Shown here piece by piece: positions 2,955 through 40,649 of a DNA stretch of 40,649 bases. The position numbers and the translations under genes are program-made. The notes beneath the pieces were generated by a model, which did no database searches, had not been told where the DNA came from, and saw nothing but the letters and a program-made list of their open reading frames with translations. This DNA is from a virus. Its lineage: Duplodnaviria; Caudoviricetes. Position 1 is the stretch's first letter. The number at the start of each line of letters is the position of its first letter. The stretch lies in the IMG/VR virus record IMGVR_UViG_3300037045_000370, positions 1-40,649 of that record; one strand, 5' to 3'.

Positions 2955-3755
2955 TCACCGCTTTCCTGAATAATGCCCTCTGATCACATCAACCCTATTA
3001 TGTCCCAAATCCCTTGATACATCTAATTCCTCCGCATCCACAAGCCGGGTCTGCGCATATTCAGATCTATAGCTATGCACATCCATCCTGGAAGGAATAT
3101 AAGAGAATATTGGTTGGCAAGGATATCTGCCTTGAATAATATCCAAAACTCTTTCCTCCATGCCAGCTACTACGGTTACCTCCCTGGCTTTTCCTCCTTT
3201 CCCCTGGCCTACAAAGGCTATAAGTTTACCATCTTTCCAATAAATATCATTAGAACGTATAGCTGCCAACTCGTGTCTCCGGAGTCCAAAAGCTTTTGAA
3301 AAGTCTACCAGTTCACAATATCTATCCGGATTAAAGGTTTTGTCCATAGCTACTGACAACCGGCTACGTTTAATATTTTTTATTCGACGCTTAGGTACTT
3401 TGATTTCGCTGGCCAGATTAGTATCCTTAAATATTTTTCGTAATGCTGATCTATCCCTCTGGATTGTCCAGGCTGATTTACCTTGGGCAATACGCTCCTT
3501 TATATAGATAGCTACATATGGCCTAGACTGCTGCATAGTACGCGCGTACCCACTTCTAGTGCACCAGGCCGCAAATTCGTGTGCAACTTGGCGATATGTT
3601 TTGAACGAAACTATACTAAATATTCCCTCCGGAGCTACCCCAAAGCCGCTTTTACCCTGGATATGTGCTTTATTAATTGCATCCTTTTTAGCTTGGTGTT
3701 TGCTCTGCCCAAATCGCTCCTGATCCCTCAAACTGCTAAGTAACTGGTGAAACAA
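2955..3755 (-). CDS. Compact tyrosine recombinase (resembles Integrase_1-type proteins)
   Basis: Catalytic residues present: GLRRHE (R), GKGGKAR (K), HSYR (HxxR), LGHNR (H), C-terminal HY (Y); true start may be ATA at 3773. Confidence 0.8.
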   Translation of the reverse strand: MFHQLLSSLRDQERFGQSKHQAKKDAINKAHIQGKSGFGVAPEGIFSIVSFKTYRQVAHEFAAWCTRSGYARTMQQSRPYVAIYIKERIAQGKSAWTIQRDRSALRKIFKDTNLASEIKVPKRRIKNIKRSRLSVAMDKTFNPDRYCELVDFSKAFGLRRHELAAIRSNDIYWKDGKLIAFVGQGKGGKAREVTVVAGMEERVLDIIQGRYPCQPIFSYIPSRMDVHSYRSEYAQTRLVDAEELDVSRDLGHNRVDVIRGHYSGKR

Positions 3756-3806
3756 TGAAGGTCTTTTGCTTATATATAATCGCCTCCTTAAAAATGGTTA
3801 TAATTA

Positions 3807-4160
3807 GCCTATTGACATATATTTGCTGTTTATATTTCGCCAATAAGCTCGTTTAGACATCGAGCCATTCAGAGCTGGCCCGGCACTCGGTAGGGTTACA
3901 ACACGCCAATAAGTAATAAAAACATTTGCAATAATAAATAATTTTGAAAGTCTCCCCGGGGACCCGGGATTTTGTGTGAAGAAATTTAGATGTGAAATAG
4001 ACAGACCGAACCTATAGTTAGGCTCGGTCATTTTTTCTCCCGCAGTGCGGATTTCAACATTTTTTCAAGTAGTCAATATAATAAAATATAATCCATTAAG
4101 CCAGTAAACTGGCAAACTAACTCCGTATAACGGAGCATATACCTCTCGGCAAAGCCAAGA
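3807..4160 (-). ncRNA. Putative structured RNA or folded ssDNA element of about eight hairpins
   Basis: GC-rich stems in AT-rich DNA at 4144-4160, 4120-4136, 4100-4113, 4039-4051, 4004-4029, 3954-3969, 3847-3865, 3807-3848; imperfect pairs read as G-U on the minus strand. Confidence 0.55.
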
Positions 4161-4215
4161 AAATATCTTTAATAAAATTAATATACAACTATTTTATTTT
4201 GATTGCAACTACTTT

Positions 4216-5220
4216 TTATTGTACTAAATGCTTACGGTACGCCTCCTGTTTTTTAGACTCGCTTACTTGGGCATATACCTGTGTGGTCGCAGGGTCAGCA
4301 TGTCCCAGTAGAGCCTGCACGGAGGATAGATCGGCACCGTTATTCAAAGTCAAGGTTGCAAACGTGTGTCTAAATGTATGCGGGTGTATATTTTTCTGCA
4401 CTCCTGATCTAGAAGCTATAGCGGAAATTACTCTCTGAATACCTCTAGTACTTAATCTCCGGCAAGGATGCCGTTCAGTGACAAAAAGAGATGGAACCTC
4501 ATCTAGCCGCAACATCAAATATTTCTTAAGATGATACAATGATTTAAACGATAAATAAACTTCCCGTTCTTTATTTCCCTTTCCGATCACGCGCGCGCTC
4601 ATGGCTTGGTAGTTTATATCCACTTTATTTAGTTGCTGGACCTCGCTTAGTCTGCCTCCTGTGGCGTAGAATACTTCCATCATGGCACGTTCTCTAGGAG
4701 ATATACACGCTTCCCTTACTTGTTCTAATTCCTCTATTGTGAGAGCCTTAGGCAGCCTCTGTTCTTTTTTGGGTGGCTTAATGCGTCTTACCGGATCTTT
4801 GATAATTATTTCCTCATCCAATAGCCATCCGAAAAAAGATTTAAGTACGGAGAGTTTTCTGCTGATAGAAGACATTTTTAAATGCTCGAACCGGCTTAGG
4901 TATTCACGAATATCTGATGTAATAATTTGGTCAGTCGGATCAGTAACGTGCTGGGCAAAAATACGGAGTTCGTCGGCATATCCATCAAGCGTAATCTCGG
5001 ATAAACCTTCAAGGCGTTTGGCTGCTAGGAACTGACCTACCTTGTCCCTTATATCAGGATGAGCCCCAGGCAGTTTTGCCGGTCGTATGTCATAGAGAGA
5101 TAGGATCCCAGCGACAGTCATATGGAGTTTGGGCAACTCAATGTCGAAACACAGGTCAGAAACGTTGGATACGAGCTGGTGAAGCAACTGCTCCCCAGCC
5201 TGTTGGGTAGAATTATTCAT
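4216..5220 (-). CDS. XerD/XerC-like tyrosine recombinase
   Basis: N-terminal core-binding region; TGGRLSE, GKGNKER, HPHTFRHTFAT, LLGH...TTQVY. Confidence 0.92.
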   Translation of the reverse strand: MNNSTQQAGEQLLHQLVSNVSDLCFDIELPKLHMTVAGILSLYDIRPAKLPGAHPDIRDKVGQFLAAKRLEGLSEITLDGYADELRIFAQHVTDPTDQIITSDIREYLSRFEHLKMSSISRKLSVLKSFFGWLLDEEIIIKDPVRRIKPPKKEQRLPKALTIEELEQVREACISPRERAMMEVFYATGGRLSEVQQLNKVDINYQAMSARVIGKGNKEREVYLSFKSLYHLKKYLMLRLDEVPSLFVTERHPCRRLSTRGIQRVISAIASRSGVQKNIHPHTFRHTFATLTLNNGADLSSVQALLGHADPATTQVYAQVSESKKQEAYRKHLVQ

Positions 5221-5409: not shown

Positions 5410-5425
5410 GGAGGCCGAAGCCTCC
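5410..5425 (-). terminator. Hairpin at the end of the lysis cassette
   Basis: GGAGGC-TTCG-GCCTCC on the minus strand followed by ATTGTTTT. Confidence 0.6.
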
Positions 5426-5607
5426 TATTCTGATAATTTATCTTTGGTGGCCTTGTTCGCGAAGTAGAACGTAACTCCGGTTGTAGTCATAGTTGCCAGG
5501 GCCCCAAATTTAACATCTGAAACATTGGGTATAAAACACCCGGCAATAAATGCTCCTACTAGTAAATAAGCTAATACAGCCCTGGTTCCACCTAATTGTT
5601 TTAACAT
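5425..5607 (-). CDS. Small two-TM holin-like protein
   Basis: 60 aa, two hydrophobic segments, FYF motif and basic tail; after the endolysin; AGGAGG RBS. Confidence 0.7.
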   Translation of the reverse strand: MLKQLGGTRAVLAYLLVGAFIAGCFIPNVSDVKFGALATMTTTGVTFYFANKATKDKLSE

Positions 5608-5619
5608 GACAAACCCTCC

Positions 5620-6174
5620 TTATTTAATGTAATTAGCAACTGAAATTAACAGGTTATCCAGGTAACGCACACACTGAGCTGCAGACTTCCAGTATTCCGC
5701 AGCTGAAATAATACCTTTTTCTTTTAATACTTCCATGGCTTCATCAATATTCACAATAACACCCTCCTTCTTATCTACTTGGCTAATTAGATCCTCCCAG
5801 GGGAACATTGCCCCAGGGCAAGCCGTAGCGTCAACATCAGAATGACGAACTACTGGAATTTCACCGTATAGCTTGCGAAGTCGTTCAATTAAACTAACAA
5901 TCGACTCTATTTGTTCACTAGTTGGCAGGGAATCGGTAAAATCTCCAGCAAGACATATTCCAATGCTATCTTTATTAGCGGAAAGAGCGTGTGCTCCTAC
6001 CGCCCAATCAGGACGGCCTTTTTTTACTTCCCCGTCTTGTTCAATGAAATAGTGATAGCCAACCATCGCAAATCCCTGGTTACGGTGCCACTGATCTACC
6101 TGTTCTATTGTGGTGCTAGTGGGGCTAGCAGAATGGTGGATAACTATTCTGTTAGTTACAGTTCTGTTTTCCAT
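5620..6174 (-). CDS. Endolysin, T7-lysozyme/PGRP-type N-acetylmuramoyl-L-alanine amidase
   Basis: IVIHHS, GYHYFI, GAH, SIGICL.GDF, H.D..AT.CPG. Confidence 0.9.
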   Translation of the reverse strand: MENRTVTNRIVIHHSASPTSTTIEQVDQWHRNQGFAMVGYHYFIEQDGEVKKGRPDWAVGAHALSANKDSIGICLAGDFTDSLPTSEQIESIVSLIERLRKLYGEIPVVRHSDVDATACPGAMFPWEDLISQVDKKEGVIVNIDEAMEVLKEKGIISAAEYWKSAAQCVRYLDNLLISVANYIK

Positions 6175-6184
6175 ATCACACCCC

Positions 6185-7144
6185 CTATTTATAAAAATAT
6201 ACTTGCTGTAAAACTTGATTCCATTCCACTTTATAGCCCATATGTTCAGCCATAAACCTTAATGGAACCATTACACGATTATTTACGTTATCTACAAGCG
6301 GGGCACAGTCCATTTTCACTTCAACCCCGTCAACTTCTGCATATGCCTTATTAAGCCATATATACCCCTTTTTACAAGCAGCTGGCGGCAAGACAATATC
6401 CACACTTGACCATGATTCAAACCAGTAAGGCATACCATTGTCAAAAAAACGGCCTGTAAAAAATTCATAAGGAATATAGCAAAAACCTGCTTCCCCCCAT
6501 GATACTCCCCATGAATTGCGAACCTCAAAAAATCCTGTATATCCATTAGCCTTCATATTATCATCGTAGCCAGTAACACAAATAGCATGTCCACCCATCA
6601 TTTGACCGTTTGGCAATTCAACTATTCCATTACTGCCAGTATTAATAAAATTCTCACAGACTAAAATAGCACCCAAAACCGGACCATCTTTAACGATAGC
6701 CTGTTTCACTTCGTTTATTGTGCCTATCTTCGCATATGCCCCTATTTTGAATTGTAAGGCTGACTGATCTGCCCCAGCAGGAACACTTGGCATATTAGGC
6801 CAACTCATGCCAGAGTAAGGAAATAAACCCTCAGGGCACACTCCATAGTCAGACAGCACTTTCATAGCTACTCTTGGATATGTACCCTCTTGGTCTGGGA
6901 TACCGTCTAATTCCTTACATCGTTTATAAATATATAAAGGGCTGGATTTAATACCTTCCTGGCTATCCTTAACTCCGGAAGATGCAAAACCAACGCACGA
7001 GCCAAAAGAACCTTGATCTCGTACCGGACCTAAACTTAAGCGTCGACTGTATTTACTGGGTAAGGATTCAACTGTAAATATCGCCCGATATAGATAATCC
7101 CGGTGATCCGCCAAAGATTGAATAGCACCAAATTTATAACTCAT
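6185..7144 (-). CDS. Papain-family (C1A) cysteine peptidase with C-terminal Cu-amine-oxidase-N-like domain
   Basis: DQGSFGSCVGF (Cys), GGHAICVTGYDD (His), RNSWG (Asn); C-terminal RVMVPLRFMAEHMGYKVEWN. Confidence 0.9.
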   Translation of the reverse strand: MSYKFGAIQSLADHRDYLYRAIFTVESLPSKYSRRLSLGPVRDQGSFGSCVGFASSGVKDSQEGIKSSPLYIYKRCKELDGIPDQEGTYPRVAMKVLSDYGVCPEGLFPYSGMSWPNMPSVPAGADQSALQFKIGAYAKIGTINEVKQAIVKDGPVLGAILVCENFINTGSNGIVELPNGQMMGGHAICVTGYDDNMKANGYTGFFEVRNSWGVSWGEAGFCYIPYEFFTGRFFDNGMPYWFESWSSVDIVLPPAACKKGYIWLNKAYAEVDGVEVKMDCAPLVDNVNNRVMVPLRFMAEHMGYKVEWNQVLQQVYFYK

Positions 7145-7507: not shown

Positions 7508-10500
7508 ACCTCATTTAATTCCCTTAATAATGGTGCTGCCTGTTTTTGCTTTTCCTCCTGGGTTATTTTCTGGTTCTTCCAGACAGCGTTTATTTTTTCT
7601 GTTAATGAGTCAATCATCCTGACTCTTATTATTTTGTTATATACTTGCTCCTGTGGCACTCCCTGTTTAGTTGCCTCCTGTACCTGCTGAGTCTGTTTTT
7701 CACTTAAGGGTCTTCTGTTATTCTCATAATAATCCTTAGCTTCACTATAAGCCGACGGCCCAAACAGTAAACCCTTGGCAGAATTAACGGGATCTGTTCC
7801 AACCGGGTATTTAAGCTGATCATCATCAGTGTAAACCCCTTGTTTCATTAATGCTCCCAACCCTCTCCTGGTCTTATCAAGCTGTAATCCACCCCAGGGA
7901 AGAATTAATTTACTGGCCGGATCATTTAGAGCCTTAGTTATTAATAAACCAGAGCCGAACCTGGTCGGGTCAGATCTGCCAAACAACTCTTTTCTGGTAG
8001 GTAAATCATCTGATCCAAACACTGAACCGCCGTATTCAGGATAAGTGGCTGCTATAGTCTGACCTAATGGAACATTTGATAATATTTCACCAGCTCCCCG
8101 GCCGGCAATTCTTAGAGCCTTTTCCTTGGTTGATAATTTATCATCCTGAGCAACATTAACTGAATCAATTATCGCCTGTATTGGGTCTAACGTGACCCCT
8201 GAGCCTCTTATGTTTTTCGCTCCCTGGTTAAACATATATAGTGTCATAAGTAAAATTATCCCGCCGGTTACGTCCTTAGCCTCTTTCATGTCCTTCATGA
8301 CATGTAAAAGATTCATTACTTCCAGCTGAAACGGAGCTACCAATTGAAATAACTTAGCCTTTTGCATCAGCGGCACTTCGCCTATTCCTCGACCAGCCAC
8401 CAGCCTCCTGGTTTCATAATCTGCATATCGTACTGGATCTTTAATAAGTTTATTCGCCAGCCCTTTTTCATAACACGAGTTCCAAATAAACTCAGTACCT
8501 ATACGGTCTGCTGTTTCCATCATCGCTACGGCACCATTCTTGGCCTTATCTAGTACCTTAGTATCAAATGGCCGATACATGGCATCTGCATAACGCTCTT
8601 GCAGGAATGTAGATCTAGCCATAGGATTATTTTTTGTAAATGAATCCGGCTTATAACTGCGTTCAATAATTGATTTATTAAACCTAACCAAACCCGGAAA
8701 AGAATACTGTTTCGCAAAAGCTATTCCCTGAGGAATATTTGCTACCTGAGCCACCATAGTTCCCGCATTACCAAGTATAGTATTAGATTTAACCCGATTA
8801 TTGACCCAGTTCACTGCCTTAAAGAACTTCCTGCTGGCTACCTTTTGGGCCCCCCTGTCAAAAGGATTAGTTTTCCCTGCCAGATCGTTAGCATAATCCT
8901 CCAGGAACTCTATAAAATGATTTATATTACCTTTAGCACCCGGGCCCTCCACCAGCTCATCCTTAAGCTGCCTGAAATTTTTTATTTGCGGATCAATATG
9001 AAGAGCATAGGCAGCATTAGGAAGATAGTTTAAAAAGCCACCTACAGCATCTATATCATAATCGCCTTTGTTTTGCTTTTGAAAGATGCTGCTCCATTTT
9101 GAGTTTGGTCTAGTAGTATCTGATATGCCAGCCAACCCAGGTGAAATCTGTGCTGGAGAATCAAAGATATTTTTCAGACCTTCCAGGCCCTCAAGCTCTC
9201 TAAAATGACGATAGTAATCCTTTCTCTTTGGCAGTCGTTTACCCCTTAATGCCCTCTCATATTCCGCTTCCAGACCGTCTATAAGGCCACGTCTGCCCTC
9301 GGCTGTATAAATTGGATCGTTCTTTATGCGCTCGATCCGATCAGTTATTTGCCTCATAGTTTCGGTGTCTTCAAGGTTAGTTTGGCGGCTTCCACGTAAT
9401 TCATCTAACTCAGACTGTATTCTATTTATAATATTCTGCCGATATTGAGGCACATAAAGAGTATCTTTCTTAACTGCATCGATTTTAGCCTGCAGCTCCT
9501 GAATTGTCTTGGTATCTTCGGTACCTCTCCGGCGTGGGTTATTGCGAATAGTATTTAGTTCCCAGGTAAGCTCCTGAAGTAACTTCTGTTGCTTTTCAGG
9601 TGAATACTTGACCGTATCGCTTAGATCATCTATTTTGGTCTGTAATTCCTTCATATAACCGGTTTCCCCTGTATTGGGACGGTTGGGACTGTTGCGCATC
9701 ATATTAATTTCCCATTCTAATTCCCGGATTTTCTCTGCCTGGGCATTCTTACTATACTTGTCGGGCATTTTAAGATCATCGATTTTACTGGTAATCTCAG
9801 TTAAGCGAGCATCGGCACCAGGGTATACTATTGTCCTGGCATCGTTAATATCATCAACCAGGCGATCATAAGACTGCCTAAACCATGCATCTGCCTTAAT
9901 AATATCCTGCGCCCTGGCTTCCCCCAGTTCATCAATAAGATCCTGCTTAGAAAAAGGTATCCATTCCTTAACTTTTTGTTTAGTAACTGGATCTGCTGCC
10001 CAACGCTCCCCGCCGCCTTCACCGTATAGCTGGACCAATTCACTTTCCCGGCTGCCTTTTTTAATACCCAGGCCCTTGACTACCTTTTCATTTAAATCAT
10101 TCAAATACTGTTGCTGTGTACCTACATAACTTCCTTTAGCATCATCCAGTTTATCCAGCACCTTAGACTTAACTTCTTCATATCGCGGTCCCAGTACTTG
10201 TTTAAAGTTGCGGTATATATCCCGCATATACGCCTGTAATCCAGTTATATCATTTAATTCCAGTTCGCTTATATCTTCGCTAAGAATGCGATCTGGATTT
10301 AACGGTATTTCCTCTTTTATATTACTAACGCTATCCTCAGCTCCCTGTCCGGAACGAGCACGCATAGGTCCGGGCTGTGTAGCACCGGTTAATCCGTTAC
10401 CCTTACCGGCTGCATCGGAAGCCCCATCTGCTTCTAGTCGGCCAAGACCAGTTGGAGTTGTATTGTTCTCAATCTTATTAGCCCTAAGTTTACCCAGCCC

Positions 10501-27997: not shown

Positions 27998-28621
27998 TCA
28001 TACCCTGATTAGATTATTTAAAGAATCACTATATTTGTCATAAGTATCTCTGTCCAGTCCAATATATGCTTTAGTTTCCGCTTCACTTCTGTGTCCCAGC
28101 ATCTCCTTAACTAAACTAATGTTATACTCGCTTTCCACATATATCTTATATGCAAAAGTTTTCCTCAATGAATGGGCAGAAATATGTGTAAGACCAAACT
28201 GACGACCGGCATCTTTTAAGATACGGCTCACATGACTAACTGCGATGTGTTTATTATTTCCTTTCCTGGATTGGAATAAATATTCATAATCTTTCTTATT
28301 CTTAATATATTGCACCAGGAGCACATCTAAATTAGTTATTACTTTTACAATTCTAGGCTTAATATTTTCTTTTCTTATATTTTTACTGTTTACCTTTTTC
28401 CCCTCGAGGATCTCAAAATATCCGTTTTTTAAAGCAATCTTGATATCCCTGACCTTTAGACTCACCAGATCGCCGGCCCTGTATCCTGTAGATATACCTA
28501 AAATGAATAATATATAGTCTCGTTCATTTTTACATTTCAAGTAATCTTGTATGTCTAATACCGTTTCTCTGTCTTTTATGGGTCTTGCAGGTTTCTTTTT
28601 AGCCATAACTCCAGGCTCCAA
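27998..28621 (-). CDS. Small catalytic-domain-only tyrosine recombinase
   Basis: TGYRAGD, K, HSLRKTF, LGH....T..YIG; lacks an N-terminal binding domain. Confidence 0.9.
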   Translation of the reverse strand: MEPGVMAKKKPARPIKDRETVLDIQDYLKCKNERDYILFILGISTGYRAGDLVSLKVRDIKIALKNGYFEILEGKKVNSKNIRKENIKPRIVKVITNLDVLLVQYIKNKKDYEYLFQSRKGNNKHIAVSHVSRILKDAGRQFGLTHISAHSLRKTFAYKIYVESEYNISLVKEMLGHRSEAETKAYIGLDRDTYDKYSDSLNNLIRV

Positions 28622-38434: not shown

Positions 38435-39400
38435 GTGCCGTTAGGCAGAAAAGAGCTGGGTAATCGCATTAAGCTTGCCCGTGATGAAAGAGAGCGGAGG
38501 ACAGGAAATAAGTTTTCTCAAAAAGATTTAGCTTTATCTGTCAATAAATCTCGAAGCTATATTGGAGACCTGGAATCCGGGCGTACATATCCCAGTTACG
38601 CTCTTCTTAGCCGAATATCTGAAGCTTGTGACGTTCCGCTAAATTTTTTTGATACTGAGCAATCAGGGTTATGGGTAAAACAAAATCGAGAAAGGCAGAA
38701 TATGTCTATAGAAGATATCTCTCTAGAAGCGACTATACCCGTCGATGTACTTCAGCAGATTGAGGCAGGCCATGTTATAAATGGTGTGACATTAGTACAG
38801 TGGATGAAGATTGGTGAAGTATTGGGACTTACTAATGAAGAAACTATGAAGTATATATTTGAAGACACAATATATCAATCCTTTTTTAAAAACGATGGAA
38901 ATAATAAGAATTTAAACAATATTAAAAATATACTTCTAAATGACTTTAATAACGATTCACATATTCTGCACAAAAAGGTAGGGGCTATTCCATTTGACCC
39001 GGAATCCATAATTATGCTTCCTGTTTATGGCAAAATAGCAGCTGGTATTCCTATAACAGCTAATCAAGAAAACGATTTCTATCCACTAGACACTCGGTTT
39101 ATTAGTCTTAATGGATATTCACAAGATGACTTTTTTTTCCTTCGAGTCCAGGGAGATAGTATGGAACCTGGTATATTTAATAAAGATCTAGTTTTAGTAA
39201 GGTCACAGCCAGCAGTTGAAACTAATGAAGTAGCTGTCATTCTTTATAACGGAGAAGATGCCACGATAAAAAGAGTTACCGTGGCCGGAGATAAAATTGT
39301 TCTTAACTCAGACAACAAGAATTATCCCCCGCAAATATACAATGCAGTTGATTGTCGGATCTTAGGCAAAGTATTGCAACGTATTGGGAAGGTGGTGTGA
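38435..39400 (+). CDS. CI-like repressor: two XRE HTH domains plus S24 autopeptidase
   Basis: HTH1 SQKDLA...SRSYIGDLESG; HTH2 MSIEDIS......LQQIEAG; IAAG cleavage site, GDSM (Ser), ATIK (Lys). Confidence 0.9.
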   Translation: MPLGRKELGNRIKLARDERERRTGNKFSQKDLALSVNKSRSYIGDLESGRTYPSYALLSRISEACDVPLNFFDTEQSGLWVKQNRERQNMSIEDISLEATIPVDVLQQIEAGHVINGVTLVQWMKIGEVLGLTNEETMKYIFEDTIYQSFFKNDGNNKNLNNIKNILLNDFNNDSHILHKKVGAIPFDPESIIMLPVYGKIAAGIPITANQENDFYPLDTRFISLNGYSQDDFFFLRVQGDSMEPGIFNKDLVLVRSQPAVETNEVAVILYNGEDATIKRVTVAGDKIVLNSDNKNYPPQIYNAVDCRILGKVLQRIGKVV

Positions 39401-39404
39401 TGGT

Positions 39405-40649
39405 ATGGAAGAATCAAAACAAAAACAAACAATAGGTTATTATCGGAAACGTGGTAAAGATTCTTATGAATTAGATTATCGACGGAATCGAAAAACCGTT
39501 AAGGCCAAAAATGATACTGAAGCTGCGCGATTACTCGCAAGGTTTATTTCCGAAATAGATTCAGGTAAGTTCCGGAAGCCTTCTAAAATGACCTTAAAGC
39601 AACTATCAGACCGTTTTTTGCGTGACAATCCTGAGCTATCCACAGCCACCAAGAATAACTATGAAATACACCTAAAAGAACGGATACTTCCTTCTTTAGG
39701 GGATAACAAAATTGATAAAATTAAACCAACTCATATTTATGATTTTCTGAATAATCTCAAAGAAGATGGCATAAGGAAAGACGGGAAGCCAGGTGGTTTA
39801 GGAGCAGCAACTATAAAAAAGAATTACAATATTCTTTCGTCAATGTTCTCTTTTGCGGTTGAATTGGGAGAATTAGAAGATAACCCATGCGTAAAGGTTA
39901 AACCTCCTAAGATACCTAAAAGGAAACCGGTAAGTCTTGAAAAAGACCTAGCTATTCAATTGCTTCAAGCCCTAGCTAACGAATCGTTAAAATATAAAGT
40001 AATGGTGTTACTTGCTGCCTGCACAGGTATGCGCCGGGGTGAAATTCTAGGTATTGGAGACAGTACTCTAAATATAGATAATTGTGCAGTTATAATCGAC
40101 CAAGCAACCAGGCATATCGCAGGAGTAGGAATATACTTAAAAGATCCTAAAACAGATGGTAGTATAAGAGCTATTCCACTTCCCCCCAGTATTATGCCGC
40201 TAATTTCAGAGATGATAAATGCTAGGGATCTACAACGCAAAAAATGCGGAGATAAATGGGTTGCTAAAATATTAAAAGAAAGTGAATTGGTTGAAAACGA
40301 TTTACTTTTCACGCAGTGGAATGGAAAACCAATGCATCCCAATACAGTTGATGGATGGTTTAAAAAGTTTAAAGAAGATAATAACTTGCCGGAAAACCTG
40401 ACATTTCATGGGCTTAGACATACTAATATCACCCTATTATTGAAGTCCGGGATAGACGTAGGAACTGTTGCTGACAATTCTGGGCACACAAAGAAATCAA
40501 CAACATTAGATTATGATGATCCTTCTCCTGAAGCTTTGCGTGAAGTTGCCAATAAAATAAATACCGTTCTAAACCTTCAAGAAACTGTGCCCGGCCTATT
40601 AAATTTCCCTGTAAATATCTATCGATTAAAAAAGAAAAAATCTATGTGA
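39405..40649 (+). CDS. int: Prophage integrase (tyrosine recombinase)
   Basis: Arm and core-binding regions; TGMRRGE, PKT, FHGLRHT, GH....TT.DY; probable start ATG 39405. Confidence 0.93.
   Translation: MEESKQKQTIGYYRKRGKDSYELDYRRNRKTVKAKNDTEAARLLARFISEIDSGKFRKPSKMTLKQLSDRFLRDNPELSTATKNNYEIHLKERILPSLGDNKIDKIKPTHIYDFLNNLKEDGIRKDGKPGGLGAATIKKNYNILSSMFSFAVELGELEDNPCVKVKPPKIPKRKPVSLEKDLAIQLLQALANESLKYKVMVLLAACTGMRRGEILGIGDSTLNIDNCAVIIDQATRHIAGVGIYLKDPKTDGSIRAIPLPPSIMPLISEMINARDLQRKKCGDKWVAKILKESELVENDLLFTQWNGKPMHPNTVDGWFKKFKEDNNLPENLTFHGLRHTNITLLLKSGIDVGTVADNSGHTKKSTTLDYDDPSPEALREVANKINTVLNLQETVPGLLNFPVNIYRLKKKKSM

Follow-up and report, generated by a model that had tools for sequence, protein, structure and literature searches.

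An uncatalogued, conserved and structured element of about 385 nt lies upstream of the genes for a family of compact tyrosine-recombinase-fold proteins that is itself uncharacterised, and is tied to that family. It was analysed in a window of 40,649 nt (the whole stretch of DNA under study), a provirus record with terminase, portal, replication, repressor and integrase genes. That the element is real and linked to the small recombinase is held with high confidence. At the lysis end of the prophage the genes stand in the order amidase, XerD-like recombinase, small recombinase (behind a gap of 440 nt) and HTH, the last of these convergent, and the features of this region are as follows.

2955–3773, minus strand: compact tyrosine-recombinase-fold protein with a core-binding domain, a short catalytic domain and the nucleophilic tyrosine 4 residues from the C-terminus.
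3783–3789, minus strand: ribosome-binding site AAGGAGG, 9 nt before an ATA codon.
3804–4031, minus strand: 75-aa open reading frame overlapping the element, not conserved and probably not a gene.
3826–3833, minus strand: box 1, TAAACAG, the family-wide motif, which forms the 3′ arm of a stem interrupted by a mismatch or internal loop.
3851–3857, minus strand: box 2, UCU[A/G]AAC in the window clade, a few bases behind the pseudoknot.
3861–3888, minus strand: predicted H-type pseudoknot (stem 1 GAGU/GCUC, 2-nt loop 1, stem 2 CGGGCC/GGCUCG, 1-nt loop 2).
3900–3903, minus strand: 5′ arm YGUU of the stem closing the proximal domain, paired with box 1.
3954–4160, minus strand: distal cluster of six short hairpins, H1–H6 (4160–4144, 4136–4120, 4113–4100, 4051–4039, 4029–4004 and 3969–3954).
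4180–4208, minus strand: putative sigma-A-type promoter TTGCAA-17-TATATT, just behind the XerD-like stop codon, with a predicted leader start near 4173.
4216–5220, minus strand: XerD-like recombinase, the upstream neighbour, syntenic in the related loci L001 and L003 and outside the module.

A sequence-only reading of this DNA had noted that the phage already has an integrase. Another recombinase is indeed present, but there are three further tyrosine recombinase genes and not one (4216–5220, 27998–28621 and 39384–40649), which makes four in the prophage altogether. The XerD-like gene is common near the lysis genes of Bacillota phages (43 loci). The recombinase module stands between two lysis-type cassettes (1–1505 and 5425–6174), which have two Amidase_2 genes and small membrane proteins; L001 is arranged differently, its homologue of the 417–1226 amidase being upstream of the XerD-like gene. 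Positions 1690–1776 (88 nt), which include a palindromic hairpin, are 78% identical to non-coding positions 7777–7863 of L001, which also holds a weaker second copy. Among the late genes, 6185–7144 encodes a papain-family cysteine protease with a domain resembling the N-terminal domain of copper amine oxidases.

The compact recombinase had been read as 266 aa, which is its length from the TTG at 3755. The proteins of relatives begin MSKRPSLF, with ATG or GTG at the position where the window has ATA. The gene most likely starts six codons before that TTG, at ATA 3773–3771, to give a 272-aa protein like those of the relatives. Given its ATA start, the window gene may be an attenuated or silent copy. 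The database protein from the window (P0003, 193 aa) was called from an internal start.

The R-K-HxxR-H-Y set that had been described as intact is present in the window protein as R159, K186/K189, H227-x-x-R230, H252 and Y262. R159, H227, R230, H252 and Y262 are invariant among 42 aligned proteins, and all six positions (R, K, H, R, H and Y) are conserved at 96–100% in 232 family proteins. Further features of the family are the invariant RSR and N-terminal basic motifs. The family profile gathers 801 clusters at 50% identity, with E-values up to 1e-30. The core-binding (SAM-like) model PF02899 was matched at E ≤ 0.05 by 37 of the 42 members, the window protein falling just under the cut-off, and PF12835 gave no match in the window and weak matches in 4/42 members. 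Scores against the curated XerC/XerD models (24.8 bits, cut-off 335) and the integron-integrase model (15.6 bits, cut-off 265) were far below threshold. The chain usually stops soon after the nucleophilic tyrosine: in 200 of 230 proteins no more than six residues separate it from the C-terminus, the median being 3. The catalytic domain is short, with 41 residues between the lysine and H-x-x-R vs about 67 in the XerD-like neighbour.

Upstream of this gene, all five stems quoted in the sequence-only reading were found in place on the minus strand, and a sixth stem and the pseudoknot stem pair were added. The element (about 4173–3790) is the most stem-dense stretch of the prophage: a 435-nt stretch holds six GC-rich stems, the highest count for any sliding window in the 40.6 kb (mean 0.75). 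Folding z-scores are −4.12 (minus strand) and −3.03 (plus strand), and none of 100 shuffles was as stable on either strand. A promoter scan of the window was by itself no better than chance (8 sites vs 4.8 ± 2.4). The element is single-copy, with no cassette array beside it. As a DNA query against phages and plasmids it returned chance-level pieces only, and among the 20 stretches found by a motif scan of viral contigs the gene was present only at the already known L001 locus.

The closest relatives for which DNA was available are three Syntrophomonadaceae loci, L001 (65%), L002 (63%) and L003 (58%); L061, L141, L147 and L204 are the L001 locus returned again. No annotated phage matched the small-recombinase protein, and family-wide and class-wide genome searches yielded only four carriers in 107 and 125 genomes; in the fourth, L150, pattern searches found no element. 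The proximal motifs are kept in 4/4 close loci and the distal hairpins in 3/4. L001 and L003 share the window's gene order (XerD-like gene, gap, small recombinase) and six hairpins that could be matched by hand in the same order, with changed arm sequences. L002 has no XerD-like gene within 580 nt upstream and has only the proximal ∼ 130 nt in common with the window. A TTG-17-TAnnnT promoter-like site at the 5′ end of the gap occurs in all four close loci vs 1 of 21 controls (search range 60 nt, or 150 nt for L002); L001 and L003 have it at the same position as the window, L002 at ∼ 560 nt ahead of the gene.

The controls were the 21 closest non-redundant of the 43 phage loci with an XerD-like gene, in none of which nine family queries found the small recombinase. 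Two distal and two proximal element patterns were found in 0/21 control loci, one 7-letter box pattern was seen once, and the H4 and H6 patterns were missing from the controls and from L002. Since elsewhere the XerD-like gene occurs without either element or small recombinase, and since the 75-aa frame is not conserved, the element is to be assigned to the small recombinase. The earlier proposal that the two form a pair is supported: the structure is conserved upstream of homologues and follows the small recombinase rather than its XerD-like neighbour.

In all four close loci the proximal domain has the same plan, in which a YGUU/AACR stem encloses an H-type pseudoknot followed by box 2, with box 1 as the 3′ arm. 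The four pairs of the closing stem form in all four sequences, one of them changing from U-A to C-G in L003. In the four-sequence alignment 51 of 52 cells pair, double-sided changes occur at two of the 13 pairs, and pairing in slid controls does not exceed 60%; the covariation score was matched by 27 of 500 shuffles, which with four sequences is weak when taken alone. One G-U pair, in pseudoknot stem 2, is unchanged in all four loci. A GCC-GCCA-GGC hairpin is also seen upstream of the gene in three distant loci (L001, L087 and L146).

It is scarcely credible that the stems are terminators, operators, chance structures or a by-product of the 75-aa frame or the XerD-like gene. H5 is indeed terminator-like by score; in the relatives, nevertheless, stem order is kept while sequence changes, the element is missing behind the XerD-like gene elsewhere, and strand-specific boxes occur in other phyla. 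The 75-aa frame has no Pfam match, the aligned L001 frame holds a stop codon, and the longest sense frames from an ATG in the relatives are 66, 31 and 11 aa, so that conservation is not explained by this frame. This reading is largely refuted by the controls, the unconserved frame and the boxes.

Those boxes were followed across the wider family. The pattern RTAAACR[GC], picked from the same data, occurs on the sense strand of 14 of 41 non-redundant upstream regions (antisense 1, shuffle mean 1.4), and box 1 in these first loci mostly makes up the 3′ side of a stem that is interrupted, at the box itself, by a mismatch or an internal loop. Ktedonobacteria, the class of G513, were fetched afterwards; the gene is present in 23/151 genomes, and 28 new loci were reduced to 20. 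The predefined pattern was found in 10/20 of these (antisense 0, shuffles 0.3), and TAAACAG, a pattern fixed after the loci had been viewed, in 18/20 (antisense 0). Box 1 is followed by box 2, which in distant loci has the form YU[U/G/C]A[A/C]C, at 40–110 nt in 17 of the 20; the two boxes are direct repeats with a variable spacing of 66–100 nt. In 15/15 Ktedonobacteria cases box 2 lies behind a stem with a G-U, with one compensated pair, and a T-loop-like UGAGA hairpin is present in 5/20 loci (antisense 0). Alignment of ten long Ktedonobacteria leaders with MAFFT and RNAalifold recovered one hairpin only, because subtypes misalign. These leaders (L241–L270) are 300–700 nt long and hold further conserved hairpins, GGTGAGAGTC in 5/20 and GGTTGAGY in 7/20 (antisense none); L261 has an additional stem-plus-box-2 domain ahead of box 1.

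The pseudoknot was sought with a tight descriptor, which asks for a loop 1 of 2 nt with A as its first base, a loop 2 with A as its last base and a loop 3 rich in A. This matched 10 of the 32 first Bacillota loci (antisense 0, shuffles 0.72), five of six Oscillospirales loci fetched later (antisense 1, shuffles 0.02) and 0/20 Ktedonobacteria loci; its features had been noted before the six loci were fetched and its code was written after they had been viewed. The window clade fails the tight descriptor because its loop 3 is not A-rich. A looser descriptor requiring box 2 catches the window clade (18/36, antisense 5, shuffles 4.5; later loci 4/6, antisense 2), and a loose pseudoknot descriptor is not strand-specific (31 vs 21 of 48). 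Both pseudoknot stems vary freely between loci, and the distant L068 and L213 have the stem-2 sequence and topology of the window. Most loci place box 1 before the pseudoknot and box 2, the order being reversed in the window clade and L272, and about half of the distant loci show neither box nor pseudoknot under the patterns used. The element is always 5′ of the gene, on the sense strand and within about 250 nt; the pseudoknot lies 75–300 nt from the start codon and leaves the ribosome-binding site uncovered. Two tandem pseudoknots are seen upstream of the gene in L012, L145 and L218 and, by eye, in L215 and L220.

Up to four copies of the gene occur in a Ktedonobacteria genome, and in G540 two of them lie within 2.5 kb of each other. 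This copy number, a constant scaffold with variable inserts and a likeness between copies that often stops at the stop codon would suit a guide RNA that, like a bridge RNA, programs a tyrosine recombinase for its targets. We regard such a guide as very improbable: no conserved end motif was seen by eye behind the stop codon or at the 5′ limits, the copies are 78–94% alike and so not recent duplicates, and selection on the gene alone would also end similarity at the stop codon.

H-type pseudoknots with an A-rich loop 3 and T-loop-like motifs are typical of RNA tertiary structure. The conserved promoter-like site, the invariant G-U pairs, the pseudoknot geometry with its A-rich loop and the T-loop-like hairpin favour RNA for the proximal domain, and on these sequence features the domain probably acts as RNA. 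The distal hairpins, with their short loops and near-perfect symmetry, could act equally well in DNA. The strand bias of G-U pairs, on which the earlier argument for a folded single strand was built, holds in part: internal non-canonical pairs in the window stems comprise three G-U and no A-C, but the other quoted G-U pairs are terminal and the relatives show no bias (G-U/A-C of 0/1 in L001, 0/0 in L003 and 1/2 in L002). The gap between sense and antisense folding energies is likewise 1–6 kcal/mol in relatives vs 18 in the window. The G-U bias, present in the window and not in its relatives, cannot carry the argument.

It is rather improbable that the element works only as folded single-stranded DNA, whether as a nicking or recombination substrate or as a lagging-strand priming signal, with any transcript incidental. 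The AAC/TAA triads of the boxes resemble Xer and attC cores, box 1 lies within a stem next to a mismatch or internal loop, and the distal hairpins have 3–4-nt loops and are nearly palindromic in relatives, all of which would fit such a role. Against it stand the features just listed for RNA and the lack of a consistent strand preference in DNA folding energies. Comparative methods, according to one study, cannot reliably separate single-stranded DNA from RNA structure (PMC5737381), a point in favour of the DNA reading.

The analogy with integron attC sites extends to a folded single strand, an AAC triad and mismatches inside a stem. It does not extend to membership, since the element is single-copy without a cassette array and the K-to-H spacing is 41 residues. 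In IntI this spacing is larger than the ∼ 67 of the Xer-type neighbour, and with a catalytic domain shorter than that of Xer there is no room for the integron-integrase insertion.

In its build the protein itself may be nearer to a MOB_M-type relaxase than to a recombinase; the chances that it is a relaxase-type nickase are put at about even. Canonical tyrosine recombinases build a four-subunit synapse through the C-terminal segment behind the tyrosine. This family is without that segment, which makes a nicking role plausible; seven residues follow the tyrosine in TcpM (pCW3), and 18 (XerD-like) and 21 in other recombinases of the window. With a 232-sequence profile TcpM scored 41.8 bits, ahead of the three other recombinases of the window at 21.5, 9.4 and 5.5 (four proteins compared), and with a narrower 42-sequence profile in hhalign the order was reversed, the XerD-like neighbour (85.7%) ranking above TcpM (78.4%). 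No MobM/TcpM model of NCBIfam was matched by any family member at E ≤ 0.05. TcpM is like the family in its 266-aa size, its compact catalytic domain and its H-x-R before a near-terminal tyrosine (RH-T-R, the counterpart of the GH-x-R present in 225/232 members), but its identity to the family is about 15% over 91 columns. Both TcpM and MobK have, like the family, a long non-coding region directly upstream; the sequence comparison itself covered TcpM. The MobK (pIGRK) report describes Tyr-dependent nicking of an oriT upstream of its own gene, and also the absence from MOB_M proteins of the core-binding domain that is present in this family (PMC8152469); TcpM residues 17–39 give a weak match to a helix of that domain. 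In a further difference, the accessible accounts describe no RNA for either TcpM or MobK.

Among the carriers of the gene are theta and rolling-circle plasmids that encode a Rep themselves, islands with an adjacent serine or tyrosine integrase, and prophage ends, as found in a neighbourhood scan covering 138 of 261 flanking ORFs from 29 loci and three plasmids. A separate integrase lies directly downstream in the island loci L006, L011, L068, L213 and L007, and no conjugation operon lies beside the gene in annotated loci. In L007 and L087 the gene adjoins a tRNA gene at the end of the integrated element. MOB-suite typed pCW3 as MOBM and none of the 18 plasmid records carrying the gene, which represent few independent lineages (12 are from Streptococcus); all 18 were typed non-mobilizable, which is the default label, with no known relaxase. 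MOB_M relaxases are described, in a recent report, as common, often annotated as integrases and in 96% of cases near an integrase (10.64898/2026.01.13.699239). Also counting against a relaxase, a MobA/MobL relaxase gene lies near the family gene in L213, and at a prophage end a relaxase has no obvious use. Upstream of tcpM in pCW3 (L279:4990–5010), GTATAAAC stands behind a short hairpin ∼ 35 nt before the gene and resembles box 1; it is outside the predefined box-1 pattern and may be chance.

A self-encoded dimer resolvase or excisionase, with the element as an autoregulatory 5′ leader bound by the protein in mRNA or DNA, is unlikely but deserves some weight. The constant sense-strand position of the element close upstream of the gene would fit a leader, the best solved-structure matches are to Xer, IntI4 and Cre, and a stability function would suit both theta and rolling-circle plasmids. 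Moreover, Cbes2777 of the Caldicellulosiruptor plasmid pBAS2 truly belongs to the family (36% identity over 86%), and a long non-coding region precedes its gene; the accessible parts of two papers describe it as a Xer-like resolvase, report no direct test of this and mention no RNA structure (PMC5779722, PMC3643907), the former proposing that it resolves multimers. What speaks against a resolvase is the missing segment behind the tyrosine and the form of the boxes, which are direct repeats 66–100 nt apart with no palindromic core site. An autoregulatory leader is in turn disfavoured by the distance of the pseudoknot from the start codon, off the ribosome-binding site.

The hairpin array directly 5′ of the gene also recalls a filamentous-phage intergenic region, in which the element would be a double- and single-strand origin and the protein a rolling-circle replication initiator. 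In one report, pBAS2 derivatives without Cbes2777 and other ORFs failed to transform (PMC3643907); these deletions do not single out Cbes2777 because three ORFs were removed at once. A Rep3, Rep_trans, RepL or primase is already encoded by many carriers, and no single-stranded intermediate is recorded for pBAS2 in the accessible account, which leaves an initiator quite improbable.

Rfam was scanned with the first 8 kb of the window and 38 loci and gave no relevant family, STAXI and xerDC included. STAXI (RF01728; PMC2864571) resembles the element in having pseudoknot units near a XerDC-type integrase and other DNA-handling genes. It repeats the pseudoknot two or three times, whereas the window has one and tandem copies occur in a few distant loci, and this element differs in being tied to one protein family and in having AAC boxes. 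No STAXI match was found at the element in five genomes, one sub-threshold match (16.5 bits) lying on another contig of G002. The xerDC RNA (RF03062), likewise a candidate structured RNA whose link to Xer-type genes is taken from its name alone, was not matched in the window or four related genomes (0/5).

The nearest published parallel in layout is SGI1. Its sgm-sRNA gene lies between mpsA and oriT, transfer cannot take place without this RNA, and its direct participation in the transfer complex is left as a possibility (PMC9299015). The likeness, judged from layout and description rather than from MpsA or sgm-sRNA sequence, lies in a tyrosine-recombinase-fold mobilization protein behind a transcribed non-coding region with inverted repeats (PMC9299015, PMC6414798), in the essential small RNA of that upstream region and in a separate integrase on the element. 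The present system has one protein, which includes a core-binding domain, where SGI1 has MpsA and MpsB, and there is no second small gene; it also differs in its distribution in Bacillota and Chloroflexota, and in an RNA with a predicted pseudoknot and AAC boxes. By this analogy the module most likely works like the SGI1 mobilization module. Profile and covariance-model tests did not place the family in MOB_M, STAXI, xerDC or the integron system. The earlier view of an undescribed system stands for the motif and the RNA of the family, of which no description was found in the literature searched (a set that leaves out most subscription journals); it does not stand for the kind, which is not wholly undescribed given the SGI1 account. 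As a whole, that interpretation is partly supported.

A model combining these observations is as follows. The element and the small tyrosine-recombinase-fold gene form one conserved module, in which the promoter at 4208–4180 is inferred to drive a ∼ 385-nt leader through to the gene. The protein would likely be a strand-nicking relaxase of the TcpM/MobK/MpsA type. The pseudoknot domain would fold as RNA and serve as its partner, as sgm-sRNA is needed for SGI1 transfer, the protein being predicted to bind the pseudoknot and AAC boxes of this RNA. The nicked origin would be held in the same DNA, probably in the distal hairpins or a box, and the carrying element (a plasmid, an island or, here, a prophage end) would be passed on by a helper conjugation system. 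In the window the ATA start may lower or silence expression. The model in full, a structured-RNA leader and a MOB_M-like nickase as one conserved module, draws on analogy and is put forward tentatively, at somewhat below an even chance. A wider proposal is doubtful, namely that the whole family consists of ribonucleoproteins in which the enzyme needs a cis-encoded pseudoknot RNA to nick, deliver or target DNA, with two scaffold domains that can be permuted.

Overall, the family offers a one-gene, one-RNA version of the MOB_M/sgm-sRNA arrangement; its motif is defined and its natural variants number in the hundreds, which opens the question of mechanism to direct tests. Should the protein be a relaxase, mobilization would extend to many Gram-positive plasmids and islands whose present typing is non-mobilizable. 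A cofactor role of the RNA would represent a new RNA-dependent activity on the tyrosine-recombinase fold, and the wider proposal, if true, would define a class of RNA-dependent relaxases or recombinases across Bacillota and Chloroflexota.
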